Shown: positions 1,828 through 51,909, counted from the first letter of the stretch. The stretch: 64,000 bases of DNA from an uncultured Actinomycetes bacterium (GCA_963775735.1 CAVZKD010000007.1:1242487-1306486); one strand, 5' to 3'. Notes: generated by a model from the letters alone, not told the origin. Numbers and translations: made by a program.

Positions 1828-1830
1828 GGG

Positions 1831-4384: not shown

Positions 4385-4439
4385 CCGCCGGAGTCTACGA
4401 AACCTCCGCGTCTCGACCGGTCGTAGACTCGCCGCCGTG

Positions 4440-7400
4440 AAGCGTTGCGACGCCTGCGGAACCGCGAATCCGGACGGCGCTTGGTTCTGCGCCTCGTGCG
4501 GGTCGTCGCTGGTGCCCGCGTGTCCTGTCTGCGGCGCCGAGGTCCCAGCCGGGGCCCGGTTCTGCCCGGCGTGCGGGCATGCGATCACGGCGGCCGACGC
4601 CGTTCCGTCCGGCCAGGAACGCCGGTTGGTGACGATCCTGTTCTGCGACGTGACCGGCTCGACCGGCCTCGGCGAACGATTGGATCCGGAGCGGTTCCAG
4701 GAGCTGCTCGCGATCTACTTCGGCGCGATGCGCGAGGAGATCGAGGCCGAGGGAGGAACGGTCGAGAAGTTCATCGGGGACGCCGTGATGGCGGCCTTCG
4801 GGGTGCCGACCGCGCACGAGGACGATCCCTCGAGGGCGCTGCGAGCTGCGCTCCGCATGCGGGAACGCCTCACGCTCGTGAACGCGGAGATCGAGCCCCG
4901 CTTCGGCGTGACGCTGCAGGTCCGCACGGGCGTGAACACGGGCGAGGTCCTCGCACGGACGAGTCCGCAGCCCGGGGATCCGATGGTGACGGGTGATGCG
5001 GTGAACGTCGCGGCTCGCCTCGAGCAGTCGGCCGAGCCGGGCCAGATCGCGGTGGCGGAACGCACGGCTCGGGCGGCACGCGGTTTCCGGTTCCGCGAGC
5101 TCGGTGCGAAGGACCTGCGGGGCAAGAAGCAGGCCGTCCCGACGGTCATGCTCGAAGGGCGGACGTCGAAGCTCGCTGAACGAGGCGTGCCGGGACTGCG
5201 TGCTCCGATGGTCGGCCGCGACGCGGAACTCGAACTGCTCCGAAGCGTCTACCAGCGCTCCGTCGCCGAGGCCCGCCCGAACCTCGTGACGATCTACGGC
5301 GATCCCGGTGTCGGCAAGAGCCGGCTCGCGGCCGAGTTCGTCGCGTGGGCGGAGGAACAGGTGCCCGACCCGAGGATCCTCCGCGGCCGGTGTCTGCCCT
5401 ATGGCGACGGCGTCACGTACTGGCCCCTGGCCGAGATCCTGAAGGACCTCGCGCAGGTCCGTGACTCCGACCCACCGGGGACCGCCCTCGAGCGGATCCG
5501 CGCGTTGGGACACGAGCTCATCACGACCGAGATGGCGACGAACCCCGCGAAGGCCATCGCGGCGCTCGGTTTCTCGATCGGCGTCGTCGATCCGGACTTC
5601 GCGTTCAGAGATGCCGAGCCTCGAGAGGTGCGGCTGAAGATCCATGCCGCGTGGCGGTCGCTGCTCTCGGCTCTCGCGGCGCGCGAACCCGTGGTCGCCA
5701 TCATCGACGACATCCATTGGGCGGATCCGGCGTTGCTCGATCTGCTGGAGGAGCTCGCCGACCGGGTCCTCGGTCCGGTGGTGTTCCTGTGCCCCGCCAG
5801 ACCGCAGCTCACCGAGGGCCGGCCCGGCTGGGGTGGTGGGCGACGCAACGTCTCTTCGATCGCGCTCGATCCCCTCACCGGGGAAGAGTCGGATCGTCTG
5901 GTGGGCTCCCTCCTCGCGATCGACGATCTCCCCGCCTCGGTCCACGACGCGATCCTGCGGCGTGCCGAGGGGAACCCCTTCTTCATCGAGGAGATCATCC
6001 GGCACCTGATCGACGAGGGGCGCATCGTCCGAGAGGGAGCCCGCTGGCGTGCCGCGTCCGGCATCGACGACGTCGCGATCCCGGATACGGTCCAGGCGGT
6101 CCTCGCGGCTCGGATCGACCTGCTGGGCCCGATCGAGAAGCGCGCCCTCCAGCGCGCTGCCGTCGTCGGACGTGTGTTCTGGCCGGGGCCCGTCGGCCTG
6201 CTCCTGAACGGGGACCGCCAGCGTCTCCGAGAGACGCTTGACCGGCTGGAGGATCGCGAGCTCGTCCTTTCCCGGCTCTCGTCCTCGATCACAGGGGAAC
6301 AGGAGTTCATCTTCAAGCACATCCTGACCCGCGAGGTCGCCTACGAGAGCCTTCCCCGAAGGGAGCGGGCGGGGGCCCACGCGGCAGTTGCCGCGTGGAT
6401 CGAGGAGATCTCGGGCGAGCGCTCCCGTGAGTTCTCGGAGCTGCTCGCCTATCACTACCAGGAGGCCTACAGCGGCCGGCGAGACGACGCCGATCCCGAG
6501 TCAGAGGAACGGTTGCGAACGAAGGCCTTCGCCTCGCTCATGGACGCGTCAGAGGAAGCCCGCCGACGGTTCGCCCTCGCGAAGGCCGCGGCGATGGTCG
6601 AGCGGGCTCAGGCACTCGCACGCGAGCCACTCGAGCGCGCCCAGGCGCTCGAGCAGGTCGGCATGGTGGCTCTCAACGACTACCGGGGCGACCTCGCGTA
6701 CGCCTCGTTCGGGAAGGCCGCCGACCTGCGTGCCGAGCACGAGCCGGGCGACGGCAGGTCGATCGCTCGAGCGTGTGCACGAGCAGTGGAGATCCCGATG
6801 CGCTGGCCCGGTTCGATGAAGCACGTTCCGCCGGAGCTGGATGTTCGACGGCTGCTCGACCTCGGGTTCGCGAACTCCCCACAAGAGGACAACGAGGAGC
6901 ACGTACGACTCCTGCTCGCCGAGGGTTTCATCGCGTACGCGTTCGGGCATCGACGCCCGATCACCAGCGAGGAGTACGAGCGCGCGGAGGCGAGCGCACG
7001 ACGAGCCACCGAGATGGCCCTCCGGCTCGGACGTTCCGACCTCGCGTCGGCTGCCCTCGACAGCCTGGGAGCCACACAGATGCCGCGCGGACTCTACGGA
7101 CGCTCGCTTTCGGACGTATCGCCAACGTCTCGAGTTGGCAGAGACGATGGAGGACCCATGGGAGCTCGGCGATGTCCACGCGGTCGCGGCTTGGACCAAC
7201 GCCATGATCGGGAACTTCCCCGAAGCCATCCGGCTCGCGGAGCGCGGGGAGGAGCTCACCAGCGGGGAGCATGCAGGCATGGCGATCCACAACCTGTCCT
7301 GGCGTGCCTTCGCCGAGTTCTCGCTCGGAAACTGGGCCGTCGTGGTGGATGAGATCCTTCCCCGCGTCTTCGAGCTGCTGGGTGAGCGGAAGGACGATCC

Positions 7401-8035: not shown

Positions 8036-8482
8036 TCAACCGCGGGCGAACTGCAGGATCGGCGTGCCGTCGGTGTCCGACATCGACATCGATCGCCCGT
8101 CGACCTCGAACGTCGCGACGGTCGCCAGCAGCTCGAGGTACCGGGCCTCGGCGCTCATCTGCGGTTCCGGGCACGCCATCTGCGTTCCGGCGATCGGACC
8201 GAGCGAGATCTCGTTCCCGGTGGCCTCGTAGCTCGTGTTGTAGTTGTTGCAGCCCGAGATGCCGCTCATCGTGGAGCCGTCGAACTCGGCGTTCACGCCC
8301 ACGTCCACGATCTCGGACTCCCCGGCGGCGTTGAGCATCTGCGTGAGGACCCAGGGATCGCCTTCGAGGTCCGCCGGGTCCTGCGCGCCCCCGTCGTCGT
8401 CACCGCCACAGGCCGACAGAACGACCGCGAGGACCAGGATCGGCGCGACCAGCCAGCTTCGACGGAATGGCCGCGCGCTCAC
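8036..8482 (-). CDS. lipoprotein with META/HslJ-like domain
   Basis: GTG start at 8482 overlapping the clpX stop (GTGA). Signal peptide plus lipobox [10 protein letters not shown]; [13 protein letters not shown]...[13 protein letters not shown] matches the HslJ/META domain. Confidence 0.6.
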
Positions 8483-9744
8483 GCCGAGCGTTCCTGGCGC
8501 TGACGCTTGGGGGTCTCCTTCACGGGCACGAGCGTGGGGTTCACCTTCGTCCGCACGACGTCGCCGTCGATCACGCATCGCGTCACGTCCTGCCGCGAGG
8601 GGAGCTCGTACATCGTGTTCAGCAGGACCTCCTCCATGATCGCGCGCAGGCCGCGGGCGCCCGTGGCGCGCAGGATCGCCTGATCCGCGATCGCATCGAG
8701 CGCGTCGTCGCTGAACTCGAGCTCAACGCCGTCGAACTCGAAGAACCGGCGGTACTGCTTCACGAGCGCGTTCTTCGGCTTGGTCAGGATGTCGACGAGC
8801 GCGGTCTTGTCGAGGTTGTGGACGTTGGTGATGACCGGGAGCCGTCCGACGAACTCGGGGATCAGCCCGTACTTCAACAGGTCCTCGGGCAGGACCTGGC
8901 CCAGGATCGCCCCGAGATCCTTCTCCTCGACCCGACGGACGTCCGCCCCGAACCCGATGCCGCGGCTCCCGATGCGGCTCTCGACGATCTTCTCCAGACC
9001 GGCGAACGCGCCGCCGCAGATGAACAGGACGTTCGTGGTGTCGATCTGGATGAACTCCTGGTGCGGGTGTTTGCGTCCTCCCTGCGGAGGGACGGAGGCC
9101 GTCGTGCCCTCGAGGATCTTCAGCAGCGCCTGCTGCACCCCCTCGCCGGACACGTCGCGCGTGATCGACGGGTTCTCCGACTTGCGGGCGATCTTGTCGA
9201 CCTCGTCGATGTAGATGATCCCGGTCTCGGCCTTCTTCACGTCGTAGTCGGCCGCCTGGATCAGCTTCAGCAGGATGTTCTCGACGTCCTCACCGACGTA
9301 GCCGGCCTCGGTGAGGGCGGTGGCGTCGGCGATCGCGAACGGGACGTTCAACATCCTGGCCAGGGTCTGCGCGAGGAGCGTCTTCCCGCACCCGGTGGGG
9401 CCGAGGATCATGATGTTCGACTTCTGGAGCTCGACCTCGGCGTCCTTCGCACCCACCTGGATCCGCTTGTAGTGGTTGTAGACCGCCACCGACAGGACCT
9501 TCTTCGCGGTCTCCTGGCCGATGACGTACTCGTCGAGGAACGCGTAGATCTCCTGCGGCTTCGGCAGCTCCTCGAGCTTGAGCTCGGAGCTCTCGGAGAG
9601 CTCCTCCTCGATGATCTCGTTGCAGAGATCGATGCACTCGTCGCAGATGTAGACACCCGGACCGGCGATGAGCTTCTTCACGTGCTTCTGCGACTTGCCG
9701 CAGAACGAGCACTTCAGCAGGTCCGAATCGCCGATCCTCGCCAT
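8479..9744 (-). CDS. clpX: ATP-dependent Clp protease ATP-binding subunit ClpX
   Basis: 421 aa. N-terminal zinc finger CSFCGKS...CDEC, Walker A GPTGCGKT, conserved ClpX motifs throughout. Confidence 0.95.
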
Positions 9745-9804
9745 GAGCCCCCGTGCCCCCTGAGCCCAGCGGCCGGGCGAACCCGGCCGTTCCGGACCCG
9801 AATC

Positions 9805-10434
9805 CTACGACGCGCCGGCGGCCGCCGCTGCGAGTTCGGGCCTGATCTTTCGGCTGGTGATGACCTCGTCTACGACGCCGTACTCGACGGCCTCATCGGC
9901 CGTGAGGATGTAGTCGCGGTCCGTGTCCTTCGCGACCTTCTCCAGCGGCTGGCCGGTGTGCTCGGCGATCAGCTCCTCGAGGAGCTTGCGGTACCGGGTG
10001 ATCTCCTTGGCCTGGATCTCGATGTCGACAGCCTGGCCCTGCGCGCCGCCGTGCGGCTGGTGCAGCAGGATCCGGGAGTGCGGCAGCGCGTAGCGCTTGC
10101 CCTTGGTCCCCGCCAGCACGAGCACGGCCGCCGCCGACGCCGCCTGACCCATGCAGATCGTGGACACGTCGGGCTTGATGTACTGCATCGTGTCGTAGAT
10201 CGCGAACAGGGACGTGATGTCGCCGCCGGGCGAGTTGACGTAGAGGTTGATGTCCTTCTCGGGGTCCTCCGACTCCAGGTGCAAGAGCTGCGCCATGATG
10301 AGGTTGCCCACGGCGTCGTCGATCGGCGTGCCGAGGAAGACGATCCGCTCCTTGAGCAGGCGCGAGTAGATGTCGAACGAGCGCTCGCCGCGGCTGGTCT
10401 GCTCGACGACGACCGGTACCAGGTAGTCCTTCAT
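9805..10434 (-). CDS. clpP: ATP-dependent Clp protease proteolytic subunit
   Basis: 209 aa. ERIVFLG...INSPGG...[12 protein letters not shown]...HQP catalytic-triad context. ATGA overlap with the tig stop. Only one clpP copy is adjacent. Confidence 0.95.
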
Positions 10435-11795
10435 GACGTCTCCTCCGTGGTTCCGTCGGTAGCCTGGTCGCCCTCGGCGGGCTCCTCGGGATCGCGCCGA
10501 CCGGCGTCCGAACGGATGTCTGCATGCTCGACGAGCACGTCGAGCGCCTTCGAGCGGATGATATCACCGGCCAGTGCGACGACCTGGCCGCTCCGATCGA
10601 GGCTCTTCGCGATCTCCTTCGGCTCCCGCCCGAGCGCGCCGGCGAGCGTCGAGATCTCCCGGGCGATCTCATCCGCGGAGACCTGGATGTCCTCCTGCCG
10701 GGCGATGGCCTCGAGGACGAGGTCGGCCTTGATCGCACGGATCGCATGGTCGCGAGCGTCGGCTCGGAACCGCAGCTCGTCGACCCCTTGGGCCTCGAGC
10801 AGCTGGTCGAGCGTCATGCCCACCTGCTCGGCGCGCTCCGTCGCGTGCGCCACCCGATGCTGGACCTCCTCGTCGACGAGTGTGTCGGGCAGCTCGACCT
10901 CGATCCCGTTGACGACCGTCTCGAGCACGCGGTCGCGGACGTCGGCATCGCTGACCCGCTCGCGATTGCTGCGCAGCTGTTCGCGGACGTCCGCCTTGAG
11001 TTCGTCGAGCGTGTCGAACTCCGAGGCCACCTTCGCGAACTCGTCGTCGACCTCGGGGAGCCTCTTGGCCTTCACCTCTTTCACGAGGACACGGAACGCA
11101 ACCTCGGCACCCGCCCGATCGCCCGCCGCAGGGCCGAGCGTGTCGTTGAACGCGAGGATCTCGCCCGCACGTTTGCCCTCGAGCTCCCCGTCGAGCGTGC
11201 TCCCGAACTCGCCGGAGCCGACCTCGTGGAGGAGGTCGGGTCGTGTGGCCTCGGGGATCTCCTCATCGTGCACGGTGCCCCGCAGGTCGATGACCACGTA
11301 ATCCCCCGTTCGGGCGGGTCTCGCGACGGTCTCGAGCTCCGCGAACCGCTCCCGGAGCGAGTCGAGGAACCGATCCACGTCCTCGTCGGTGATCTCGATC
11401 GGCGGCCGGTCGACCTCGACGCCCTTGTACTGGGATGCTTCGAGCTTCAGGCGTGGCCGGACCTCCACGACCGCCGTGAAGACGAGCGGCTTGCCCTCCT
11501 CGACGTCGCCCAGGTCGATCTCGGGATCGGCGATCGGCGCCAGGTCGTGCTCGCGGAGGGCCTCGCGGTAGTAGGTCGGAACGGAGTCCTCGAGGAACTC
11601 CCCGAGGACGACCTCTCGGCCGAACTGCGCATCGATCACCTGCCGGGGGACCTTGCCTTTACGGAACCCGGGGATCTTCACCTGCTGCGCGATCTTCCGG
11701 TACGCGCGGTCGAGATCCTTGCCGAACTCGTCCGGAGGGACCTCCACGGTGAGCTTCACCCGGTGCTTGTCGGTCGATTCGAACGTCGTCTGCAT
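10431..11795 (-). CDS. tig: trigger factor (ribosome-associated chaperone / PPIase)
   Basis: Real start [19 protein letters not shown] at 11795 (residue 65 of track ORF 10431..11987). Typical trigger-factor N-terminus, followed by the FKBP-type PPIase domain (GFRKGKVP). Confidence 0.9.
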
Positions 11796-11877
11796 CGGTT
11801 CCGAGCGTATCGGAAAGGGGCTTCCGGTATCGTGCGCGAAGATCGGCCGACGCCCCATCTCCGAGGATGGATCGAGC

Positions 11878-12636
11878 ATGTTCGAAGAGGATCTCGCGTT
11901 CGCGAACGAGCTGGCCGATCGTGCCGGCGAGATCGGACTCTCGTACTTCGGCGGTTCGTTCGAGGTGCGCCTGAAGCCCGACCGCACTCCCGTGACCGAG
12001 GCCGACCTCGCGATCGAATCGGCGATCCGCGAGGCCGTGACGGCGCGCTTCCCCGGGGACGGGGTGCTCGGCGAGGAGGGCGGGCTCGAGGGCAGCGGAC
12101 GACGCCGCTGGATCGTCGATCCGATCGACGGGACGAAGAACTTCGCCGACGGGGTGCAGATCTGGTCGAACCTGATCGCCCTGGCCGTCGACGACGAGCC
12201 GGTCGTGGGGGTGGTGAACCTGCCCGCCCTCGGCGAACGCTACGAGGCGGTGCGCGGGGGTGGCGCGCGGTTGAACGGCGAACCGATCCACGTCTCCCGG
12301 GCCGACCGGATCACGCGTTCGTTCGTCGTCTTCGCCGGGATGGAGGACTGGCTCGAGGGTCCGACGGGCGAAGCCGTCCAGCAGCTGGTTCGGGAGGCAC
12401 GCCGCAACCGGGGATTCGGCGATGCATGGGGGCACTGCCTCGTCGCGCGCGGTTCGGCGGACGTGATGCTCGAAGCGGAGCTGGCCACCTGGGACTTCGC
12501 CGCGCTCCAGGTCATCGTCCGCGAGGCCGGGGGGGCGATCAGCCAGTTCGACGGCTCGCCGCCGGTGCACGGTGGGACGGTGATGTCATCGAACGGGCTC
12601 CTGCATCAGGAGCTCGTGGCGCGGCTACGCGGGTAG
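11878..12636 (+). CDS. inositol monophosphatase family protein (histidinol-phosphatase HisN / SuhB-like)
   Basis: ATG 11878 with RBS-like gaggatgg upstream. EADLAIE...WIVDPIDGT...WDFAA are IMPase-family metal-binding motifs. Divergent from tig. Confidence 0.8.
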   Translation: MFEEDLAFANELADRAGEIGLSYFGGSFEVRLKPDRTPVTEADLAIESAIREAVTARFPGDGVLGEEGGLEGSGRRRWIVDPIDGTKNFADGVQIWSNLIALAVDDEPVVGVVNLPALGERYEAVRGGGARLNGEPIHVSRADRITRSFVVFAGMEDWLEGPTGEAVQQLVREARRNRGFGDAWGHCLVARGSADVMLEAELATWDFAALQVIVREAGGAISQFDGSPPVHGGTVMSSNGLLHQELVARLRG

Positions 12637-18099: not shown

Positions 18100-19450
18100 A
18101 TGGCGCGTCGCCGCCCCACGGGACTCGACGATCGCGGTCGTCGGCGACGGCTTCGGGTCGCTCATGGTCTACTCGACCGCCGTCTACCTCGGGTTCCGTC
18201 CCGATGAGCTGACGATCTACGGGACGAACGACCTGGCGGTCGGGACCTACCAGCAGTTCGCGTACAACCTCGGCCAGACGGTCTTGCGTTCGGAGTCCGA
18301 GTCACACTTCCTGCCGGCGGACTGGCCGACGTTCGCCCAGCTGGACGCGTGGGCGCGACGCGACCCGAGCTTCCTGTTCCGCTCGATCAAGCGGAAGTTC
18401 AATCCCGGAGTCCCGGACATCCTCGCCGAGGCGTCGGTGGTCCAGCAGCGCCTGCGATGGAACGGCCATCGGTACCCCGCGCGGGTCGGATGGCTGCAGC
18501 GGGAGCTCTCGCCGGTTCCCCATTTCCTGATCTACGACGAGGACGCCAACCTCATCGGCCGGGCCAAACACGTTATGCTCGCGGTGGGACATGGTCCGCT
18601 CTCGTTCCCCCCGGTCCTCGCGAAGGCGAAGGAGGACCCACGGCTCGACGATCGGATCGTCCAGGCCTACGAGTCGAAGGCGTACGCACCCGGAGGGAGG
18701 TACGTCGTCATCGGCGCCGGCATCGCCTCGGTGAACGAATGGGCGAACGCGCTCGACGCGGGCGCATCCGTCCTGTCCCTCCTCCGGAACCCGGCGCCCG
18801 ACGAGCAGGACCTGAACACCCCGCGGTGCCTGTTCGAGGCGCTCGGGATCGACATCTTCCAGGGACTGCCGCTCGATCGGCGCGTCGCGTTCCTCGGCAA
18901 GATCTTGAAGGGGACCACCCCGAAGCGGCGGAGCTGGATCCAGCGGGTCGAGAAGGGACGGTCCGAAGGCAGGTTCGCGGAGCTCATCGGAGAGATCGAC
19001 CAGGTCGAGGGCGGGCCGGCCGGGCTCCGGATCCACATCTCGAGTCGCCACGGGCCTGCCCCCGGAACGTTCGACGTCACGGGTTTAGTCGCCGGGACCG
19101 GCTTCAACAAGAGCATGCTCACGATCCCCATCCTCCGGCGGCTCGTCGAGCACTACGACCTGCCGGTCGACCGTGGCGTGATCCAGCTCCGGACCAACTG
19201 CGGCGTCCCCAGGCTCGACCTCGAGCGATCGAGGCTCTGCATGATGGGGATCTTCGCCAACACGATCATCCCGCACGGCGACACGATCGCCGGACTGAAG
19301 TACATCGCACGCAGGTTCGTCGCAGACTGTGCGCGCGCCGAGGGGTTGCGCCGGCGAGGCTTCGGATCTCGCCTGTCGATGCAACTCTCGCTCTCATCGG
19401 CGTCGGCCAAGGCGATCCGCCGGGCACGATCAGTGGAGCAGCTCGCCTAG
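18100..19450 (+). CDS. FAD/NAD(P)-binding oxidoreductase, N-hydroxylating / flavin-monooxygenase-like (probable frameshift in a C-run at ~18111-18118)
   Basis: Track ORF 18164..19450. In-frame upstream sequence encodes DSTIAVVGDGFGSLMVYSTAV (Rossmann 1) but has no start codon. Removing one C from ccgcccc joins ATG 18100 to it (MARRRPRDSTIAVVGDGFG). Second Rossmann YVVIGAGIASV; FDVTGLVAGTGF resembles the FATGY motif of SidA/IucD-like monooxygenases. Confidence 0.6.
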
Positions 19451-20029
19451 ATGTGCCCCACCGTGATCGGACGCTTGCAGACGCGGGTCGCGACGCTGAT
19501 CCTGCCGGCGATCCTCGCCACGATCTTGTCGTTGGTCTCGGGCAACCCCGGCTGGATCGTCACGATCGGGATCTACCTCGTCATGGGGACGATCCTCGAC
19601 CTGCTCCTGTACCCCTTCATCATCAAGTGGCAACCGCCGTGGCTCACGTTGGTGCTCGGCGTCGGGGAGTTCATCCTGCTGTACCTCCTCGTGCAGGTGC
19701 TCGAGCCTGGGGGCGGTGAGCCCGGGTTCGGCACGGTCGGCGCGATCGTCCTGTACTGGGTGAGCTGGTTGCTGGCGGTCAGCACGCGGATCGTCCTGTT
19801 CCCGCTCCTGTCGCTCAGTTGGATCGAGAACGGCGGCGAGTTCCGGGAGACCGGGTGGTCGATCCCCGCGGAGATGGAGCCGGTCCCGATCATCGCGGCC
19901 GTCGCTCCCGACCAGGCACAGGCCGGCCTCGTTCGCCAGCTCTCCACCGTCGGAACGATCCCGACCGAGGCCAAGCCGCCGCTGTCGGGGGTCCATCGAC
20001 GTCCGACGATACCGACGCCACCCGGCTGA
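19451..20029 (+). CDS. hypothetical membrane protein (4 predicted TM helices), translationally coupled to the upstream oxidoreductase
   Basis: ATG immediately follows TAG (tagATG). Hydrophobic segments [71 protein letters not shown]. Confidence 0.5.
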
Positions 20030-20085: not shown

Positions 20086-20778
20086 ATGCTCTCGATGCCC
20101 CTCTCGACGGAACGCCGGGCCACGGACACGCAGCAGCGTGCGATCGAGCTCGTCGGCGTCACCCGCCTGTTCGGGGCCGCGCCCGCCGTGCTCCGGGTCG
20201 ACCTCTTGGTTCGGCGCGGCGAGGTGGTCGTGCTGCGAGGCCCGAACGGCGCCGGCAAGACCACGCTGCTTCGGATCGTCGCGACGTCCCTCTCCCCCAC
20301 GTACGGTGGCGGGACGGTCCTGGGCCACGACCTCACACGCGACCGAGATGCGATCCGCAGGGACACCGAATCGCTCTCGCACCGGACCCGTCTCTACGAG
20401 GACCTCACGGCGTCGGAGAACCTGGCCTTCTGGTGCCGGCTGCTAGGCCTCGGGCTCGGTCTACGTGGGATCGATGCCGCCTTGGAACGCGTGGGGCTGC
20501 TGGAGGTGAGCGGCGAGCGGATCCGAGGGTTCTCGCAGGGCATGCGGCAGCGACTCGCCCTCGCGCGAACCATCCTTCGAACGCCGCAGCTCCTCTTGCT
20601 CGACGAGCCGTACACGGGCCTGGACGGGGAGGCTCGCCAGACCGTCGACGACCTCATCCGCGAGATCCACCGCGACGGGCGGACCGCGGTGATCGCGACC
20701 CACCAGGCCGCTCCGCAGGGCGTGCCCTGCCGAGAGCTCCATCTCGACGGCGGGCGGATCGTTCGGGAGACCCCGTGA
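20086..20778 (+). CDS. ccmA: heme exporter ABC transporter ATP-binding protein CcmA
   Basis: GPNGAGKTTLLR Walker A, LSGGMRQRLALAR-like signature (FSQGMRQRLALAR), LLLDEP Walker B. Small CcmA-like size (230 aa). Confidence 0.85.
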   Translation: MLSMPLSTERRATDTQQRAIELVGVTRLFGAAPAVLRVDLLVRRGEVVVLRGPNGAGKTTLLRIVATSLSPTYGGGTVLGHDLTRDRDAIRRDTESLSHRTRLYEDLTASENLAFWCRLLGLGLGLRGIDAALERVGLLEVSGERIRGFSQGMRQRLALARTILRTPQLLLLDEPYTGLDGEARQTVDDLIREIHRDGRTAVIATHQAAPQGVPCRELHLDGGRIVRETP

Positions 20779-21446
20779 CGTTCCTGCGACAGGCGGCCGC
20801 GATCGCCGGCAAGGACCTGCGGATCGAGGTCCGCGGCCGTCATGCACTCGGGATGCTGCTGCCGTTCGCGGCGACGATGCTGGTGTCGTTCGGGTTCGCG
20901 TTCGGGCCGGGGCGCGAGATCCTCCAGCGAACGGCGCCGGGACTCCTGTGGATGGCACTCCTGTTCGCCAGCGTCGTCGCATCCCGCCGCGCGTACCAGA
21001 CGGAGGCCGAGGACGGCGCCCTCGAAGGCCTCCTGCTCGCGCCCGTGGACAAGGCCGCGGTGTACGCGGGGAAGCTGTCGGCGATCGCGCTCCAGCTCCT
21101 GGTCCTGGTCGTCCTCGTGTTGCTCCTCGTCGTGGTGCTGTTCGATCTGGCGCTCGCGGGTCCGCTCGTGTTGGGAGGTGCGTTCATCCTAGGGACGGTG
21201 GGACTGGCGGCCGTGGGAGGGTTGTTCGGTGTGGTGGCGGAGGCCGCACGCACCCGTGAGGCGGTGTTCCCGATGCTCGTGCTCCCCCTGACCGCACCGG
21301 TGCTGATCGCCGGCGTCCGCGCGACCGACCTGGCGGTGACCGGCGCGAGCGGCGACGCGCTGTCCTGGCTCGGGCTGCTGGTAGCGTTCGACGTCGTGTT
21401 CGTGTCGGTCGGCGTGCTCGTGTTCGGCGTACTGATGGAGGACTGA
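20775..21446 (+). CDS. ccmB: heme exporter protein CcmB
   Basis: GTG 20775 overlapping the ccmA stop (GTGA). 223 aa, 6 TM, FLRQAAAIAGKDLRIEVRGRHAL...typical CcmB N-terminus. Confidence 0.85.
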   Translation: MTFLRQAAAIAGKDLRIEVRGRHALGMLLPFAATMLVSFGFAFGPGREILQRTAPGLLWMALLFASVVASRRAYQTEAEDGALEGLLLAPVDKAAVYAGKLSAIALQLLVLVVLVLLLVVVLFDLALAGPLVLGGAFILGTVGLAAVGGLFGVVAEAARTREAVFPMLVLPLTAPVLIAGVRATDLAVTGASGDALSWLGLLVAFDVVFVSVGVLVFGVLMED

Positions 21447-22181
21447 GTGGACATCGCCGCTCGCGGATTCGGCAAGGTGGGATCGCGGAGCGGTGAGCGA
21501 TGGCTCGGCATCGCCGCGATCGTCGCACTGGCAACGAGCGCCGTGCTCTCGTTGGTCGTCGCGCCGCCCGACGCCGTGCAGGGCGATGTGCAGCGGCTGA
21601 TGTACATCCACGTGCCGGCAGCGTGGCTGGCGTATCTGGCGTTCTTCGTCGTGTTCGTGGCCAGCATCGCGTACCTGCGGACCGGCCGGATCCGGTGGGA
21701 TCGCCTCGCCGCCGCGTCCGCCGAGATCGGTGTGCTGTTCACCGCGCTCGCCATCACCCTCGGCGCCCTCTGGGGCAAGCCGGTCTGGGGAACGTGGTGG
21801 ACCTGGGATCCGCGGCTCACCACCACGGCGATGCTGCTCCTGATCTATCTCGTCTACCTGTCGGTGCGGCGGATCGCCGAGAGCCCGGCGCGCAGGGCAC
21901 GCTGGGCGGCCGTCATCGGCATCGTCGGGTTCGTCGACGTTCCGATCGTGCACCTCTCGGTCGTGTGGTGGAGATCACTGCATCAAGGCCCGACCCTGCT
22001 TCGGCTCGGCGGCCCGGAGATCCATGGCACGATGCTCCTCGCACTGCTGGTCGCCGTCGGGGCGTTCACGCTCGTGTACGCGTACCTGATGACGTTGCGC
22101 CTGCGGGTCGGCCGTCTCGAGGAGCGCGAGCTCCGCGAGGCGATGGCTCCTCGCGGATCGCATGAGGAGGTCGAGGCGTAG
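21447..22181 (+). CDS. ccmC: heme exporter protein CcmC
   Basis: 244 aa. Conserved WGxxWxWDPRL motif (WGTWWTWDPRLTTTAML). GTG start directly after the ccmB stop. Confidence 0.9.
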   Translation: MDIAARGFGKVGSRSGERWLGIAAIVALATSAVLSLVVAPPDAVQGDVQRLMYIHVPAAWLAYLAFFVVFVASIAYLRTGRIRWDRLAAASAEIGVLFTALAITLGALWGKPVWGTWWTWDPRLTTTAMLLLIYLVYLSVRRIAESPARRARWAAVIGIVGFVDVPIVHLSVVWWRSLHQGPTLLRLGGPEIHGTMLLALLVAVGAFTLVYAYLMTLRLRVGRLEERELREAMAPRGSHEEVEA

Positions 22182-22327
22182 TGGACGCCAACGCCGGCTA
22201 CGTGGTCGCTGGCTACCTCATCACCGCAGCGACCCTCGGCGGCTACACGTGGCGGCTCCTCGCCAGAGCTCGCGTCGCGCGCCGACCAGGTGCGGGAAGC
22301 GATCGCCGGCGCGATCCCGCCGGCTGA
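22181..22327 (+). CDS. ccmD: heme exporter protein CcmD (small single-TM protein)
   Basis: Not in ORF track (48 aa). GTG overlapping the ccmC stop. VDANAGYVVAGYLITAATLGGYTWRLLARAR is hydrophobic CcmD-like. Position between ccmC and the locus end is canonical. Confidence 0.5.
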   Translation: MDANAGYVVAGYLITAATLGGYTWRLLARARVARRPGAGSDRRRDPAG

Positions 22328-22333
22328 CCCGTC

Positions 22334-22353
22334 CGGGCGTCCACGACCGCCCG
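22334..22353. terminator. possible bidirectional hairpin between convergent ccmD and ccmI
   Basis: cgggcg-tccacgac-cgcccg inverted repeat (6-bp GC stem, 8-nt loop) lying between the two stop codons. No U-tract (expected in high-GC genomes). Confidence 0.25.
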
Positions 22354-22354
22354 C

Positions 22355-23287
22355 TCAGCCGGCCAACCCCTCCTCCGCTTCGGCGATCAGTTCCTCGGCG
22401 TTGCCGCGTTCCGCGCCGAACGGCGCGGCGTCGAGGTACCGCTCCAGGGCGGCGATCGCCGGCTCCGGGCGGTCGAGACCACGCAGCAGGATGAGGCCAC
22501 GGATGAACAGGGCCTCGGGGTAGCCGGGATCGGTCGAGAGCGACCGGTCGACCGAATCGAGCGCCTCGCGTGGACGCTCGGACAGGTACAGGATGATGCC
22601 GACGTGGGCGTGCGCCTCGGCGTCGTCCGGGTCGAGCTCCAGCGCCACCGCGTACTCGCCGAGCGACTCCTCGATCATCCCGGCGTCCAGGTAGCGATGC
22701 GCCAGGTCGAGCCGGGCGGCCAGGTCGTCGGGGTGATCCTCCACACGCTGCTCGAAGAAGGCGAGCGGGTCCTCCGCCGATGCGATCGGCGCCGCCGCCG
22801 GCTCCGATGCGGGGGCGGCGCCGCGCGCGAGTGTCGAGATCACGACCGCAAGCACGGTCCCGCCGATCAGCGTCGCGACGACCCAGGGCGGGACGCGGCG
22901 CGGTTCAGAGCGGTCGGTCCGTGGCGCGACGGTCCCGCCCTCGCGGGTTCCGACCTCGGGGCGTGCGTCGTCGTCCGCGAGAGACGTGTCGCCGTGTCCG
23001 GCCGGTGACCGCCGCAGCGCTCGCCGGTCGATCGCTCGGAGGACACGCGTGAGGCGCCCGTCGGTCTCCTCGCGGAGGCGCTCGTACTCGGCCTCGTCCA
23101 ACGCCCCCGACCCGCGCGCCTCCTCCAGGTCCGCGATCCCACGGAGCAGGGCGAGCCTGCGGTCGTCGAGCGGGTCCGTCGGCGGCTCGAGCGGTGCCGG
23201 TTCGTCGCGGAGGAACCCCACGAGGACACCGCCCGCGGCCACGGTCGCGAGCCCGGCCAGCGCGAACGATGCAGCGACCGGGTTCAT
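22355..23287 (-). CDS. ccmI: cytochrome c-type biogenesis protein CcmI/CycH-like (TM + TPR)
   Basis: Real start MNPVAASFALAGLATVAAG at 23287 (ATGA overlap with ccmH). Second TM; C-terminal TPR-like repeats (DLAHRYLDAGMIEESLGEYAVALELDPDDAEAH...). Confidence 0.7.
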   Translation of the reverse strand: MNPVAASFALAGLATVAAGGVLVGFLRDEPAPLEPPTDPLDDRRLALLRGIADLEEARGSGALDEAEYERLREETDGRLTRVLRAIDRRALRRSPAGHGDTSLADDDARPEVGTREGGTVAPRTDRSEPRRVPPWVVATLIGGTVLAVVISTLARGAAPASEPAAAPIASAEDPLAFFEQRVEDHPDDLAARLDLAHRYLDAGMIEESLGEYAVALELDPDDAEAHAHVGIILYLSERPREALDSVDRSLSTDPGYPEALFIRGLILLRGLDRPEPAIAALERYLDAAPFGAERGNAEELIAEAEEGLAG

Positions 23288-23763
23288 CCGGTCTCCTCGA
23301 GGCCGCCGAGCTCGCGCTCGATCCGAGCTCGCTCGCTCGACGTCACGGTCGAGCCGGCGGGGGTCGCGCGCCGCCGAACGAGGACGAGCCAGATCGCGAT
23401 CCCCGCGATCACGCCGACCACCGGGACGAGCCACGGCACGAGGTTCAACCCGCGTCGAGGAGGGGCGAGCAGGACCCACTCCCCGTATCGCTCGACGAAG
23501 TAGGCGCGCACCGCCTCCGGGGTTCGGCCGGCGAGGAGCTGGGTCTCGATCTCCGTCCGCATCTCCCCGGCGAGTCGTGACGGCGAGTCGGCTACCGACA
23601 GGTTCTGGCAGACGGGACATCGGAGCCCGGACGCGATCTCCCGCACACGATCGTCGATCGTCTGCGGCGCCGCGTCGTCGCCGGCAGCGAGGAGCGCCGC
23701 CAGCCCGACCACCACGACCGCCCCGCCGACGACCAGCCACCCTCGCGCTCGACCGCTCATCAC
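23284..23763 (-). CDS. ccmH: cytochrome c-type biogenesis protein CcmH (NrfF/CcmL-like)
   Basis: 159 aa. Signal/TM, LRCPVCQNLSVADS (CcmH CxxC motif), C-terminal TM. Confidence 0.85.
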   Translation of the reverse strand: MMSGRARGWLVVGGAVVVVGLAALLAAGDDAAPQTIDDRVREIASGLRCPVCQNLSVADSPSRLAGEMRTEIETQLLAGRTPEAVRAYFVERYGEWVLLAPPRRGLNLVPWLVPVVGVIAGIAIWLVLVRRRATPAGSTVTSSERARIERELGGLEETG

Positions 23764-24347
23764 GATGCCGCCGGGCGCAGCGCCTCGTCGATCTCGGTCG
23801 TGAGCCAGTCGTAGGTCACGGCGCCCGTCGTCTTGGCGGAGACCGTTCCATCCGGAGCGATCACGAAGGTCTCGGGGATGCCGTACACCCCGTACGCGAT
23901 CGCCGTCCGCGAGTCGGGGTCGGTCGCGAGCGGCCAGTCACCTCCAAGCTCGTCGCGGAACTCGAGCGCTCCCTCGGAGGAGTCCTCGAAGACCACCCCG
24001 ACGATCACCACGCCGCGCTCGCGGTATCGCCCCCACGCGGCCGTCAGCGCCGGGTGCTCCTCTCGGCACGGCACGCACCACGACGCCCAGAAGTTGAGGA
24101 CGACCACCTGACCGTCGAGGTCGGCGAGATCGATCGTCCCCTCGTCGTCGAGCCGCGGCAGCGAGAACTCGGGCGCGGCCTCCCCCTCGAGCTCGCTCGG
24201 TAGCTCGCGGGGATCGCGTCCGAGCCCGGACGCGAGCAGCAGTGCGAACAGCAGGAGCGGGACGAGGACGAACGCGACCGACCGCCAACGTGGGCGCTTC
24301 GATCTGCCCTCGGGTACCTCGACGCGCTCGTCGGTCTCGGTGCTCAC
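23760..24347 (-). CDS. ccmG: thiol:disulfide interchange protein CcmG/DsbE (TlpA-like thioredoxin)
   Basis: GTG 24347 overlapping the ccmF stop (GTGA). TM anchor then VVVLNFWASWCVPCREEHP thioredoxin CxxC; GVYGIPETFVI. Confidence 0.85.
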   Translation of the reverse strand: MSTETDERVEVPEGRSKRPRWRSVAFVLVPLLLFALLLASGLGRDPRELPSELEGEAAPEFSLPRLDDEGTIDLADLDGQVVVLNFWASWCVPCREEHPALTAAWGRYRERGVVIVGVVFEDSSEGALEFRDELGGDWPLATDPDSRTAIAYGVYGIPETFVIAPDGTVSAKTTGAVTYDWLTTEIDEALRPAAS

Positions 24348-26353
24348 ACCCGCACCTGCTCGCGCCGTTCGGCGACCGGCGGGAGCACCGGCCCGGGGCC
24401 TGGCCGGGGTCGCGCCGGCCACGCCGCGACGATCCCTCCGAGCACCATCACGGCGCCGCCCAACCACAACAACCCGATCCCCGGGCTCACGAAGAACCGG
24501 AACGACGCGCCGCCGTCCCCGTCCACCGAGACGAGCGACGCGTACAGGTCGACCATCCCGTTGAACGGCGTCCCGGTTCGGATCGACGGCGTCCCGATCG
24601 GCTCGGACGAGGCCGGGTAGAGGTTCAACGATGGATGCAGCCGCACGACCTCCTCGCCGGCTCGGAACACGGTCAGGTCGGCGACGACCACGCGACGATG
24701 CGGCTCCTCTCGCGCCGAGATGCCATCCAGGCGGAGCTCGAAGCCCTCGACCGACACGGTCTCTCCCCGCGCGAGCATCAGCTCCGCCGACCGGTCGGAG
24801 ATCGAGGCCCACGAGACCCCGACGACCGCAACGATGAGACCGAGGTGCACGACGAGTCCGCCGTAGAGGCGGTGGTTCCGCGCGACGGCGCCGCCGATCG
24901 CGCGAACCACGTCGAGCTCGTTCGCTCGCATCTGCGCCCGAACCCCGCGGACCATCTCCGCGAGCGTCGCCGTCGCGACGAAGGACGCAAGGCCGAAGAC
25001 CACGACCGCCGCGGTCCCCCGACCGGACGCGAGCAGCACCACCGCGGTCACCGCGGCGGCCCACGCCGGGACCTGGAGCCGCCGGATCACCGCCGACGCC
25101 GAGGCGGCTCTCCAGGGCAGCATCGGGCCGATCCCCATGAGGAACAACAGCAGCATCGCGACCGGGGCGGCGTTGCGGTTGAAGAACGGCGCGCCCACCG
25201 AGACCTTCTCGCCGGTGACGGCCTCGGCGAGCAGCGGGTAGATCGTTCCGACCAACACCGTGAAGGTGACGACCAGCAGCAGGATGTTGTTGCCGAGGAA
25301 GACGCTCTCGCGCGACAGCGGCGTGTCGAACGACGCCTCGGCGCGCAGGGCGTCTCGCCGCCACGCGATCAGCCCGAACCCGCCGAGCAGCACCACCGTC
25401 AGGAACGCGAGGTAGAGCGGCCCCACGATCGACTCGGCGAACGCGTGGACCGATGACAAGATGCTGCCCCGGGTGAGGAACGTGCCGAGCACCGTGAGGG
25501 CGAACGTCCCTACGATCAGGGAGAGGTTCCACACCTTCAACATCCCGCGCCGCTCCTGCACCATCACCGAGTGGAGGAACGCCGTCCCCGTGAGCCACGG
25601 CAGCAGCGCCACGTTCTCGACCGGGTCCCACGCCCAATACCCGCCCCATCCGAGGACGCTGTAGGACCAGAGCGCTCCGAGCAGGAGCCCGACCGTGAGG
25701 AACAGCCAGGCCGCGATCGTCCACCGCCGCGTCACGCGCACCCACGCGTCGCTCACCCGGCCGGTGGCGAGCGCCGCGATCGCGAATGCGAAGGGCACCG
25801 TGAAGCCGATGAACCCGAGGTACAGGAACGGCGGGTGCACGGCCATGAGCGGATGGTTCTGGAGCAACGGGAGCGGGCCCCGACCGTCCACCGCAGGCGT
25901 CGTGAGCGTCTCGAACGGTGTCGTCGGCCCCAGGACGAGCAGCAGGTAGAACGCGCACACGCCGAACATCACGGCGAGCGCCCACGGGAACGTCTGGGGA
26001 CGGCGCCGCCGGAACGCGAATGCCACGGCGGCCAGGTACCCGCCGAGGACGAGGTTCCACAGCAACAACGAACCCTCGTCCGCCGACCAGAGCGCCAGGA
26101 TCTTGAAGAAGGTCGGCGTCGCGCGGCTCGAGTTCGTCGCGACGTAGCGGAGGGAGAAGTCGTCGGCGAGCAACGCGGCGAGCATCGCGAGGTTGGCCAC
26201 GACGACGAGCGCGAACAGCGAGTAGGCGGCCGTCCGTGCGCTCTCGACCACGCGGGGGCGGCCGGACCGGACGCCGACGATCGCGGCCGTCGCCCCGTAG
26301 AACGCGAGCGCCAGGGCGAGCGCGAGGGACGCGGTTCCGACGAGCGCCGGCAT
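24344..26353 (-). CDS. ccmF: cytochrome c-type biogenesis heme lyase CcmF
   Basis: 669 aa polytopic membrane protein. WGGYWAWDPVEN (WWD domain) and CcmF-length layout. Confidence 0.95.
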   Translation of the reverse strand: MPALVGTASLALALALAFYGATAAIVGVRSGRPRVVESARTAAYSLFALVVVANLAMLAALLADDFSLRYVATNSSRATPTFFKILALWSADEGSLLLWNLVLGGYLAAVAFAFRRRRPQTFPWALAVMFGVCAFYLLLVLGPTTPFETLTTPAVDGRGPLPLLQNHPLMAVHPPFLYLGFIGFTVPFAFAIAALATGRVSDAWVRVTRRWTIAAWLFLTVGLLLGALWSYSVLGWGGYWAWDPVENVALLPWLTGTAFLHSVMVQERRGMLKVWNLSLIVGTFALTVLGTFLTRGSILSSVHAFAESIVGPLYLAFLTVVLLGGFGLIAWRRDALRAEASFDTPLSRESVFLGNNILLLVVTFTVLVGTIYPLLAEAVTGEKVSVGAPFFNRNAAPVAMLLLFLMGIGPMLPWRAASASAVIRRLQVPAWAAAVTAVVLLASGRGTAAVVVFGLASFVATATLAEMVRGVRAQMRANELDVVRAIGGAVARNHRLYGGLVVHLGLIVAVVGVSWASISDRSAELMLARGETVSVEGFELRLDGISAREEPHRRVVVADLTVFRAGEEVVRLHPSLNLYPASSEPIGTPSIRTGTPFNGMVDLYASLVSVDGDGGASFRFFVSPGIGLLWLGGAVMVLGGIVAAWPARPRPGPGPVLPPVAERREQVRV

Positions 26354-26760
26354 CAGCTCACCTCGACGGGTGACGGCGTGGCTCCGGGCGACGGCGGTCG
26401 GTACTCCTCGCCGTGCTTGACCAGCATCGTGTCCGAGTGGAAGGCACCATCCGAGCCGTAGGTTCCTTCGACGACGACCCCGATCCCCGTTCGGAACAGC
26501 GCCGGAGCCGCGCCCGCGTGCACGACCGTCATCCGGGTCGTCCCGTCGGTCACGACGAAGTCCACACCGCCGCTCGCATCGTGGACCGAGCCCGGGACGA
26601 CCTGGCCGCCCAGACGCAGCCGCTCACCGGGCGGCGGTTGCTGCTCGAGCAGCTCGGTGGGGGTGACGTAGTACACGAGGTTCCCCGACAGCGCCTGGGT
26701 TCCGACCCAGGCGAGGCTCCCCGCGATCAGCACGAGCAGGACGACGACGCGGACGCGCAC
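26353..26760 (-). CDS. ccmE: cytochrome c-type biogenesis heme chaperone CcmE
   Basis: 135 aa. N-terminal TM, NLVYYVTPTEL...RLGGQVVPGSV...MLVKHGEEY. The heme-binding His is in the LVKHGEEY region. Confidence 0.9.
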   Translation of the reverse strand: MRVRVVVLLVLIAGSLAWVGTQALSGNLVYYVTPTELLEQQPPPGERLRLGGQVVPGSVHDASGGVDFVVTDGTTRMTVVHAGAAPALFRTGIGVVVEGTYGSDGAFHSDTMLVKHGEEYRPPSPGATPSPVEVS

Positions 26761-26820
26761 GAGGAAAGCCTACGGGGCTCTCTCTCGTTCCGTCGAGGGA
26801 AGCGACCTGCGCGTCCTCCG

Positions 26821-27687
26821 CTACAGGTCGAGCTCGCCCCACCCGACGACGCGGACGCCGCCGCCGACCCGCACGCGCCACCCCTCCCCCTCGCGGGTGA
26901 CCTCGACGTGCAGCTCGCTCGGCCGTCCCACCTGCTCGCCCTGCCGGATCATCACCGTCCCGGGCATCCCGGCGAGGCCGTATTCTGCGAGGTACGCGCC
27001 GAGCGGTCCGGCCGCCGACCCCGTCGCGGGATCCTCCCCGCCGGCGCCGAACTCCGTCTCGAACATCCGGGCCGTCACACCTTCGTCGGTCATGGCGAAC
27101 AGGTACAGCTCCTCGGCGTCGGATGCGGCGACCGCCTCGCCGAGGGTCGTCGGGTCGCTGACGGCGCGTCGAAGCGTCTCGAGGTCGCGCACGGGAACGA
27201 TGGTCGGAGGCAACCCGGTCGAGACCGTGCGTATCGGGAGATCTGGGTGCAGGTCGTCCACGGTGAGCCCGATCGCGCGCGCGATGAGCTCACGATCGGC
27301 GAACTCCGCGCCGAACACCGGCGGGAGCTGTCGCATCCATGCCCAGTTCGACCCCGCGTCGACCTCGACCGGGATCTCGCCCGCCGCGACGGACTGGATC
27401 GCCGGAGACGCGACCCGCCCCTCGCTCACCATAACGAACGCGGTGCCGAGGGTCGGATGACCCGCGAACGGAAGCTCCTTGCCCGGTGTGAAGATCCGCA
27501 TCGCGTATCGGTCGCCGCCGGCCTGGGTGACGAACGTCGTCTCCGAGAACCCGAACTCCTTCGCGATCGCCTGCATGAGCTGCTCGTCGATGTCGCCGGG
27601 GTCCGGCACCACGCAGAGCTGGTTCCCGGCGAGCGGCCGCGGGGTGAACACGTCGACGATGCGGAACGGGATCGGCACGGTCGGCAC
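26821..27687 (-). CDS. PhzF-family phenazine-biosynthesis-like isomerase
   Basis: 288 aa. FRIVDVFT...GNQLCVV...FGFSETTFV...FTPGKELPFAGHPTLGTAFV: PhzF/DAP-epimerase-like fold signatures. Confidence 0.85.
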   Translation of the reverse strand: MPTVPIPFRIVDVFTPRPLAGNQLCVVPDPGDIDEQLMQAIAKEFGFSETTFVTQAGGDRYAMRIFTPGKELPFAGHPTLGTAFVMVSEGRVASPAIQSVAAGEIPVEVDAGSNWAWMRQLPPVFGAEFADRELIARAIGLTVDDLHPDLPIRTVSTGLPPTIVPVRDLETLRRAVSDPTTLGEAVAASDAEELYLFAMTDEGVTARMFETEFGAGGEDPATGSAAGPLGAYLAEYGLAGMPGTVMIRQGEQVGRPSELHVEVTREGEGWRVRVGGGVRVVGWGELDL

Positions 27688-32879: not shown

Positions 32880-33317
32880 ATGGCGGCGATGCCTGCCTCG
32901 CGCCGACCGAGGACGTACCTCCTTGCCCGCGTGCCGCTGTTCTCCGGCCTTTCGCGGGCGCAGCTCGGTCGCGTCGCCGCGCTCGCCGAACAGCGGACCT
33001 ATCTCGAGGGGCAGGAGATCGTGAAGGCGGGCGAGCCCGGCAAGGCCTTCTACGCGATCGTGAATGGGCGGGCGAAGGTCATGAAGGGCAACCGGACCGA
33101 GGCCGAACTCGGGCGCGGGGCGTTCTTCGGCGAGCTCGCGCTGCTCGACGGGGAGGCGAGGTCCCGCACGGTCGTCGCCCAATCGATCATCGAGGCGATC
33201 CGGATCGAGCGCCCGGCGTTCCGGCGCTTGCTCCAGAAGGAGCCGAAGCTCGCGATCGCGCTGCTCGAAGGGATGGCGCGACGCACCCGGAAGATCATGG
33301 ACGCGCCCGCCCTGTAG
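32880..33317 (+). CDS. cyclic-nucleotide-binding domain protein (stand-alone cNMP-binding, ~145 aa)
   Basis: VPLFSGLSRAQLGRVAALAEQRTYLEGQEIVKAGEPGKAFYAIVNGRAKV...FFGELALLDGEARSRTVVA matches the cNMP-binding domain consensus (FGELAL...R..TV.A). Confidence 0.75.
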   Translation: MAAMPASRRPRTYLLARVPLFSGLSRAQLGRVAALAEQRTYLEGQEIVKAGEPGKAFYAIVNGRAKVMKGNRTEAELGRGAFFGELALLDGEARSRTVVAQSIIEAIRIERPAFRRLLQKEPKLAIALLEGMARRTRKIMDAPAL

Positions 33318-43383: not shown

Positions 43384-43591
43384 GACGGGTCGGTGCGGGA
43401 CCGGGTCACACGTGTGGCCGTCGGCCTCGCCCGGCTCGCCGGCATCGGTCACGATCCCTGTTCGCCGGTTCCTGCGCGTGTGTGCCCCCAACGACGGCCC
43501 TGGGTCCCGGAAACGCACGCTAACAGTCGACTCGGCATCCGGGCAACGGCCGGGACCTGTCGACGACGCGGTTCGTTGGGACCATGGCAGG

Positions 43592-44464: not shown

Positions 44465-44538
44465 TGCGGCTCTCCTGAGTCCCCGGATCGACGCGACCCG
44501 TCGGATGTCGCCGCGAGGCGCGATCGATCGGCCCTCCG

Positions 44539-45531: not shown

Positions 45532-45710
45532 GGCGAAGGTGCGGCCGATGGGAGCACGACGCATATGTGGGGGGCAAACGCTGCCTTCGGATTCTCGCAG
45601 ACCCTCCCCCTTTCCGCTGAACGGCCTACCGCGGAGTCCGCAGGGCATGAGGGGATCCTCAGGCGTTAGCATCGGATGGGTCCGCATCGAATCCACCCCG
45701 ACGGAGGCGC

Positions 45711-49183: not shown

Positions 49184-49190
49184 CGGCCCG

Positions 49191-50483: not shown

Positions 50484-50560
50484 CCATGCGGAACCAGCGA
50501 CCAGACGCTGGCGAACCGAGTCCGAGAGGGTGGAGCTCGCTCGAGGAGAGATCTCGTCGG

Positions 50561-51898: not shown

Positions 51899-51909
51899 CA
51901 GCTCGCCCG

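Follow-up and report, generated by a model that had tools for sequence, protein, structure and literature searches.

The stretch analyzed here, 64,000 nucleotides (nt) on one strand from an uncultured Actinomycetes bacterium (GCA_963775735.1, CAVZKD010000007.1:1242487-1306486; the whole stretch is called the window below), carries between positions 20086 and 26760 all nine genes of the System I pathway for cytochrome c maturation, ccmABCDEFGHI, and each of the nine is intact. After listing and translating the open reading frames (ORFs), ccmABCD were assigned to the plus strand and ccmIHGFE, together with a phzF-family gene, to the minus strand. Taken as a whole, the region is very probably best explained as a canonical System I pathway that was inherited within its lineage, in which the ccmEFGHI part was inverted and is served by a promoter of its own. 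The completeness of the set and the convergent layout of ccmABCD against ccmEFGHI had both been proposed in an initial annotation of this DNA; the former was borne out by the Pfam and NCBIfam matches, gene positions and motifs, and the latter by the ORF coordinates.

The family assignments were strong for most of the components. For CcmB, CcmC, CcmE, CcmF, CcmG, CcmH and the PhzF neighbor, the Pfam and NCBIfam E-values ranged from 1e-27 to 1e-130 (Table 1), although CcmC scored 175 bits against the TIGR01191 cut-off of 186. CcmA reached 130.1 bits with TIGR01189, 1.5 bits short of the cut-off of 131.6; it has a Walker A motif, GPNGAGKT, at residue 52 and the sequence LLLLDEP at residue 169, and its gene is syntenic with ccmBC in approximately 100 loci. 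The sole Pfam match of CcmD was PF04995 (CcmD) at an under-threshold E-value of 0.035. A small ORF of the same size 3' of ccmC was found in approximately 55 of 66 loci from several phyla, with a G[YF]V[IV]A[AG]Y motif, a single membrane-spanning segment and a basic tail. Accordingly, the 48-residue ORF of the window was accepted as a putative ccmD on its position, size and conserved motif. In the case of CcmI, the N-terminal model TIGR03142 matched weakly (E=3e-4, 21 bits against a cut-off of 29.3), whereas the TPR domain was clear, and the location of ccmI 3' of ccmH was conserved among the fetched loci.

All the System I catalytic motifs examined were conserved when the proteins were aligned to solved structures. 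CcmC aligned with E. coli CcmC (7F02; E=9e-32), matching its WWD motif (WGTWWTWDPRLT, residues 114-125) and both flanking histidines, H55 and H169. The match of CcmF to its T. thermophilus counterpart (6ZMQ; E=3e-127) was full-length, and the four histidine-containing motifs were all aligned; the WWD motif of the window CcmF is WGGYWAWDPVEN (residues 236-247), and its conserved histidines are H173, H261, H303 and H503, the four that, by published E. coli work, presumably act as periplasmic and transmembrane heme ligands. In CcmE, the motif H116-x3-Y120 (VKHGEEY) was found, its KHGEEY aligning to KHDENY of E. coli CcmE (8CE8). The CXXC of CcmH (LRCPVCQ, C49 and C52) was matched to that of P. 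aeruginosa CcmH (2HL7), and CcmG has WCVPC (C91 and C94), its top PDB matches being the CcmG/DsbE/CycY structures 3KH7 and 1KNG (E of approximately 1e-24).

Because every motif that it needs is conserved here, the mechanism can be carried over by analogy from System I of E. coli, Rhodobacter and Thermus. CcmABCD would pass heme from the WWD site of CcmC to His116 of the membrane-anchored CcmE, and ATP would free the holo-CcmE. CcmG and CcmH would hold the cysteines of the apocytochrome CxxCH motif reduced, while the TPR domain of CcmI would present the apocytochrome. Finally, CcmF with CcmH would take the heme from CcmE and make the two thioether bonds outside the membrane.

The System I pathways of E. 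coli, Rhodobacter capsulatus and Paracoccus have the same nine components as the window and share with it the WWD motifs and histidines of CcmC and CcmF, the HxxxY of CcmE, the CXXC of CcmH and CcmG, and the TPR of the putative CcmI. The ccmH and ccmI genes of the window are separate, as in Rhodobacter, whereas those of E. coli are fused. The window differs from these three systems in its host, an actinobacterium assumed to have a single membrane, and in the splitting of the operon into two convergent units. CcmF of Thermus thermophilus has the WWD motif and the four histidine-bearing motifs in common with that of the window, but it comes from another phylum and is clearly diverged in sequence. 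The System I* variant of archaea and Desulfovibrio, in which CcmE has CxxxY and CcmH is missing, shares the CcmABCEF core; it was rejected for the window, where CcmE has His116 and CcmH is present.

System II, composed of ResB/CcsB, ResC/CcsA, CcdA and ResA and known from Mycobacterium, Corynebacterium and Bacillus, carries out the same overall reaction. Matches of CcmC and CcmF to the CcsB model were weak (E of approximately 1e-11 and 1e-12) and arise because both proteins belong to the WWD superfamily together with CcsA of System II. In contrast to System II, no ResB/CcsB-type protein (PF05140) was matched among the approximately 60 window ORFs scanned, and the architecture is unambiguously that of Ccm. 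Separately, five CcmF homologs of normal length with 64-67% identity (P0095, P0101, P0102, P0104 and P0108) have a precomputed match to PF05140 (ResB, System II) besides their CcmF domains, and these are probably weak overlapping matches.

Within each of the two units, the genes are closely joined. The initial annotation had described nearly every junction as translationally coupled, and the coupling is real: the ccmA/B and ccmF/G junctions are GTGA overlaps, ccmH/I is an ATGA overlap, and ccmE/F reads TGATG, all as described. Only the ccmG/H junction had to be corrected, as it is GTGATGA and not ATGA, which gives a GTGA overlap if the start codon is GTG and TGATG if it is ATG. Moreover, ccmB and ccmC abut with no overlap (TGAGTG), and ccmC and ccmD overlap by 1 nt (TAGTG). 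Shine-Dalgarno sequences are present for ccmB, ccmC, ccmD, ccmF and ccmI; there is none for ccmE.

The layout of the cluster was surveyed by tblastn with the Ccm proteins of the window against 165 fetched loci, numbered with the prefix L below. In the large majority of approximately 150 other loci, ccmABC and ccmF share a strand, usually in the colinear order ABC(D)EFGH(I), and this includes the sister Actinomycetota loci L002, L006, L010, L089 and L101, with CcmF identities of 54-63%. The convergent arrangement, with ccmABCD running toward ccmIHGFE, is confined to a clade with at least 70% CcmF identity, consisting of the window, L001 and L081-L087. The clusters of Acidimicrobiia and of other Actinomycetota metagenome-assembled genomes (MAGs) share both phylum and gene content with the window, at CcmF identities of 45-63%, but they are single colinear operons, whereas the clade of the window has an inverted EFGHI and its own promoter-like motif. 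The ancestral layout was presumably a single colinear ccmABCDEFGHI operon, and one inversion of EFGHI explains the convergent layout of this clade.

The gene upstream of ccmE bears on how the inverted unit is expressed. A phzF-family gene lies on the same strand, 60 nt upstream of ccmE, which agrees with the initial annotation in both adjacency and orientation. The adjacency was limited to the subclade in which CcmF identity is 81% or more, with the window, L001, L081-L083 and L086-L088 as members. The place of phzF is taken by azlC in L084 (77% CcmF identity) and by a methyltransferase gene in L085 (70%), in line with the earlier remark that phzF is not a canonical ccm partner. Because it is limited to this subclade, the adjacency is probably an incidental by-product of the inversion breakpoint.

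The spacer between phzF and ccmE contains a promoter-like motif, in which TCGACG (26796-26791) is followed after 18 nt by TAGGCT (26772-26767), ending 6 nt before the GTG of ccmE. In seven aligned clade members, TCGAC and TANNNT were invariant while the bases of the spacer varied, and the motif was also found in L086-L088. Overall, the pattern TCGAC(G), 17-18 nt, TA(G/C)NNT and 6 nt to the start was present in 10 of the 10 clade members with upstream sequence, whatever gene lay upstream. The start codon of ccmE is GTG in the clade, with ATG in L085. No such motif precedes ccmE in the sister lineages with colinear clusters. A consensus promoter scan returned nothing in the region, so that the motif is recognized by its conservation and not by a match to the E. 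coli consensus, and alignments of the window, L001 and L085 gave no convincing conserved promoter upstream of ccmA. Leaderless mRNAs are common in Actinomycetota, and with the motif 6 nt away from the start of ccmE, a separate ccmEFGHI transcript of this kind is implied. It is therefore somewhat probable that a sigma-A-type promoter arose or was recruited after the inversion and that a leaderless ccmEFGHI mRNA starts at the GTG of ccmE. A promoter of its own within the 60-nt spacer would then drive the unit, whose remaining cistrons would be translationally coupled.

A functional link of phzF to ccmEFGHI, with co-transcription of the two, could be proposed from their common strand, the short gap and the adjacency in eight clade members, and read-through transcription from phzF could still occur. 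Such a link is nevertheless improbable, since L084, L085 and all loci outside the clade have no phzF at this place, since the conserved promoter-like motif stands between phzF and ccmE, and since the inversion breakpoint explains the adjacency. Transcription of ccmEFGHI from its own promoter is thus the preferred reading.

Where the two units meet, the spacer of 27 nt between the stop codons of ccmD and ccmI is flanked by the two arms of a perfect 9-nt inverted repeat, GCCGGCTGA/TCAGCCGGC (22319-22327 and 22355-22363), which contains both stop codons and has an inner GC stem. The hairpin shared by the two operons, which had been suggested as a possibility, is therefore present in this genome, with a folding energy of -38.7 kcal/mol (z=-2.3) and no T-tract. 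Conservation of the hairpin was rejected: in L001, L085, L086 and L087, the spacers measure 7-65 nt, with z from -1.1 to +1.3 and no significant fold. The hairpin is a possible bidirectional terminator for both units, one lacking a T-tract and evolutionary support. At the protein level, the C-terminal tail of CcmD (22260-22327) reads …RRPGAGSDRRRDPAG in the window and …RRAEAIAARRG in L081, L082 and L001.

In four of the nine clade members (L081-L084), a module of approximately 7 kb that encodes three proteins lies between ccmI and ccmD, co-oriented with ccmI. The proteins are a Pyr_redox oxidoreductase with three FHA domains, a 4Fe-4S protein that binds cyclic nucleotide monophosphate (cNMP), and a membrane-anchored pentaheme cytochrome c of approximately 740-890 residues. 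Five CxxCH motifs were counted in the L081 and L082 copies of the cytochrome, and faint MtrC/MtrF, C554 and C7 matches were obtained with some copies. The set is possibly a regulated electron-transfer module of soil Actinomycetota. It is absent from the window (22327-22355), L001, L085, L086 and L087. Remnants of the module in the window were considered and rejected, as only unrelated FHA and cNMP domain matches occurred elsewhere. The ccmD and ccmI genes of the window have their last nine bases, GCCGGCTGA, in common, inverted relative to each other, and these shared ends may be the scar of an event that removed the module.

The pentaheme cytochrome gene, which is directly downstream of ccmI in the four relatives, raises the question of whether ccmEFGHI could be a specialized NrfEFG-like module for one particular multiheme cytochrome and not a general pathway. 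The NrfE and NrfF models do match CcmF and CcmH, but both scores are under their cut-offs (TIGR03145, 412 bits against 927; TIGR03147, 57 against 159), and the generic CcmF/NrfE family model outscores the NrfE-specific ones. Moreover, the cluster has a single CcmF/CcmH set that stands alongside ccmE, ccmG and ccmABCD, each of the five heme sites in the cytochrome of the relatives has the standard CxxCH, and the window lacks that cytochrome gene yet keeps all nine ccm genes intact. The specialized module is consequently very improbable, and a general System I pathway is preferred.

The actinobacterial origin that had been assigned to the DNA was confirmed by several features of the window. To place its CcmF, one genome per GTDB species was scanned, and the best 80 matches per scan were taken. 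The top match was the 'Actinomycetota bacterium' MAG L001 (83% identity), followed by three Actinomycetota MAGs at 56-63%; Gemmatimonadota (43-50%) and many Acidimicrobiia (45-49%) came next. All CcmF relatives with at least 54% identity and a taxonomic label were labeled Actinomycetota, Actinobacteria or Actinomycetales. The window also contains genes for Ser/Thr kinase and FHA proteins, the gene order tig-clpP-clpX ... valS-folC-ndk, which matches that of Mycobacterium, and an F420H2-dependent quinone reductase, a marker of F420-using Actinomycetota. The last is encoded at 60335-60766 on the plus strand (PF04075, E=3e-49). As for the housekeeping block, tig-clpP-clpX is followed on the minus strand by valS, folC (535-1827) and ndk (128-538), in the spans 128-4588 and 8479-11987, and the valS frame is open through folC into ndk, producing a spurious ORF of 1486 residues. 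A single clpP gene was observed in the window; a clpP1-clpP2 pair is typical of Actinomycetes.

The taxonomic range of System I was then considered. Reviews confine System I to Gram-negative bacteria (many of them), archaea and the mitochondria of plants (PMC3601427), and a 2022 review describes the distribution of the two maturation systems as unexplained (PMC9145763). Among the papers searched, none that deals with System I in Actinomycetota turned up. Full ccmABC(D)EFGH(I) clusters were found in Actinomycetota in approximately 30 of the 80 best species-representative matches, mostly Acidimicrobiia, and public annotation already calls such proteins CcmF in 'Actinomycetota bacterium'. Thus, the initial view of this System I set as taxonomically notable holds with respect to the reviews, which list the system outside Gram-positive bacteria, but not with respect to the genomes, given the number of best matches that are Actinomycetota with such clusters. 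By gene content, System I is common among Actinomycetota MAGs, namely in Acidimicrobiia and in the uncultured clade to which the window belongs.

Whether the cluster was inherited or transferred was evaluated from base composition, phylogeny and synteny. The GC content of the ccm genes (0.70-0.73) is close to that of the whole window (approximately 0.69, with a range of 0.66-0.73), and the GC content at third codon positions (GC3), 0.87-0.94, is like that of the neighboring genes. In a neighbor-joining tree of 83 CcmF sequences with 100 bootstraps, the phyla formed largely coherent groups. The window CcmF grouped with L081, L001, L082, L010, L006 and L002 in 100 of the 100 bootstraps, and an Acidimicrobiia-like clade likewise received 100% support. 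Gemmatimonadota, the best-scoring other phylum, did not join the clade of the window in any bootstrap (0/100), and the window CcmF was never placed within a different phylum. In addition, the flank Aldedh-amidohydrolase-(azlCD)-(phzF)-ccmE was conserved in relatives with 70-93% CcmF identity, and the cluster had no mobile-element genes beside it. The lateral acquisition suggested earlier runs counter to these results. Because GC and GC3 are ordinary, the CcmF clade has 100% bootstrap support and the flanks are syntenic, a recent lateral acquisition of the cluster is unlikely; the ccm genes appear to have been inherited within the lineage, with a long-standing presence as the simplest reading.

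The most specific form of the transfer hypothesis, in which an actinobacterium otherwise relying on System II recently took up the cluster from a Gram-negative donor, draws on the placement of System I in Gram-negative bacteria, archaea and plant mitochondria by the reviews, on Gemmatimonadota CcmF proteins (47-50% identity) that score about equally to those of Acidimicrobiia (45-49%), and on deep branches of the CcmF tree that were not resolved. It was judged very improbable, since the composition of the cluster is the same as that of the flanking housekeeping genes, the cluster is syntenic with its flanks across the relatives, the clade is monophyletic with Actinomycetota MAGs to the exclusion of Gemmatimonadota, and no mobile-element genes adjoin it. 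Inheritance within the lineage is accordingly retained.

How far back this inheritance reaches is a separate matter, and the early-branching lineage named in the initial annotation as the alternative to lateral acquisition may still apply. System I could be ancestral in Actinomycetota, having survived in deep or uncultured classes (for example, this clade and Acidimicrobiia) and been replaced by System II in class Actinomycetes. Two separate, well-supported actinobacterial CcmF clades, each with full clusters, are consistent with this history, and the monophyly of all Actinomycetota CcmF, recovered in 29 of the 100 neighbor-joining bootstraps, is not rejected. Monophyly at that level is not supported either, and the sampling consisted of the 80 best matches per scan, which makes such an origin rather doubtful. 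A tentative extension, in which System I would be both ancestral and the sole maturation pathway of several non-Actinomycetes classes, including this soil clade and Acidimicrobiia, is held with similarly low confidence.

Several points weigh against the overall interpretation. First, ccmA, ccmD and ccmI score slightly under the curated family cut-offs. Second, neither a c-type cytochrome substrate nor a CcdA/DsbD reductant supplier was found within the 64-kb window: among window ORFs of at least 80 residues there was no CxxCH, and the window had neither a CxxCK protein nor nrfA. The substrates and the reductant supply must hence be encoded elsewhere. Third, the low bootstrap value for all Actinomycetota leaves the deep CcmF tree unresolved, so that the ancestor of the clade may have received the genes by an ancient transfer. 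Lastly, the function, the transcription start and the leaderless translation were all deduced from sequence.

The remaining features of the window lie outside the pathway. The two genes 5' of ccmA (18164-19450 and 19451-20029) were considered as ccm partners and rejected, as they had no Pfam match and no homolog in the 165 loci. They abut on the plus strand and encode a protein of 428 residues with a Rossmann-like VVIGAGIAS motif and a multi-pass membrane protein of 192 residues, respectively. At 4311-7352 on the plus strand, a protein of 1013 residues is encoded in which a double zinc ribbon occurs together with an adenylate/guanylate cyclase domain and an AAA_16 (STAND-like) ATPase; genes for several cNMP-binding proteins lie in its vicinity (32880-33317) and in the relatives. 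The span 39527-53394 is occupied by a large gene cluster for cell-surface polysaccharide, with GDP-mannose dehydratase and epimerase, several GT1, GT2 and GT4 glycosyltransferases, a WecG-type transferase, a Wzx-like flippase, a Wzy-like polymerase and a priming sugar transferase.

Table 1. Coordinates of the ccm genes and associated features in the window, and of the approximately 7-kb module in related loci (aa, amino acids).
Feature	Position	Strand	Length	Role or description	Match or detail
ccmA	20086-20778	+	230 aa	ATPase of the heme-loading ABC complex	PF00005 (ABC_tran), E=8e-28
ccmB	20775-21446	+	223 aa	Permease subunit	PF03379 (CcmB), E=6e-36
ccmC	21447-22181	+	244 aa	Heme delivery to CcmE	TIGR01191, E=1e-51
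ccmD (putative)	22181-22327	+	48 aa	Single-pass membrane protein	GAGGAGG ribosome-binding sequence upstream
GC-rich hairpin	22319-22363	unstranded		Spans the stop codons of ccmD and ccmI	
ccmI-like	22355-23287	-	310 aa	Apocytochrome chaperone; two transmembrane segments, C-terminal TPR	TPR_16, E=3e-10
ccmH	23284-23763	-	159 aa	Thiol-redox component	PF03918, E=3e-31
ccmG (DsbE)	23760-24347	-	195 aa	Membrane-anchored thioredoxin-like reductase	TIGR00385, E=1e-30
ccmF	24344-26353	-	669 aa	Heme lyase	CcmF_C (PF16327), E=1e-66
ccmE	26353-26760	-	135 aa	Heme chaperone, N-terminal membrane anchor	PF03100, E=8e-28
Promoter-like motif	26767-26796	-		Candidate promoter of ccmEFGHI	TCGACG, 18-nt spacer, TAGGCT
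phzF-family isomerase gene	26821-27687	-		Neighbor, outside the system	PF02567, E=7e-54
Module in L081	14102-21138				
Module in L082	14060-20717				
Module in L083	8637-15701				
Module in L084	13986-21087				

The findings on the ccm cluster leave the understanding of the pathway itself unchanged; their meaning lies in where the pathway occurs and how its operon is arranged. An inversion followed by a conserved promoter for a leaderless transcript would be a small example of a split operon regaining expression. As System I is routine in parts of Actinomycetota, the rule given in reviews for its range needs correction, and annotators should not regard a ccm cluster as contamination or lateral transfer when they meet one in a GC-rich genome of an actinobacterium. 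If System I were indeed ancestral in the phylum, the rule that Gram-positive bacteria use System II would reflect a later replacement in class Actinomycetes, and Actinomycetota would be the natural comparison for understanding why one system displaces the other.

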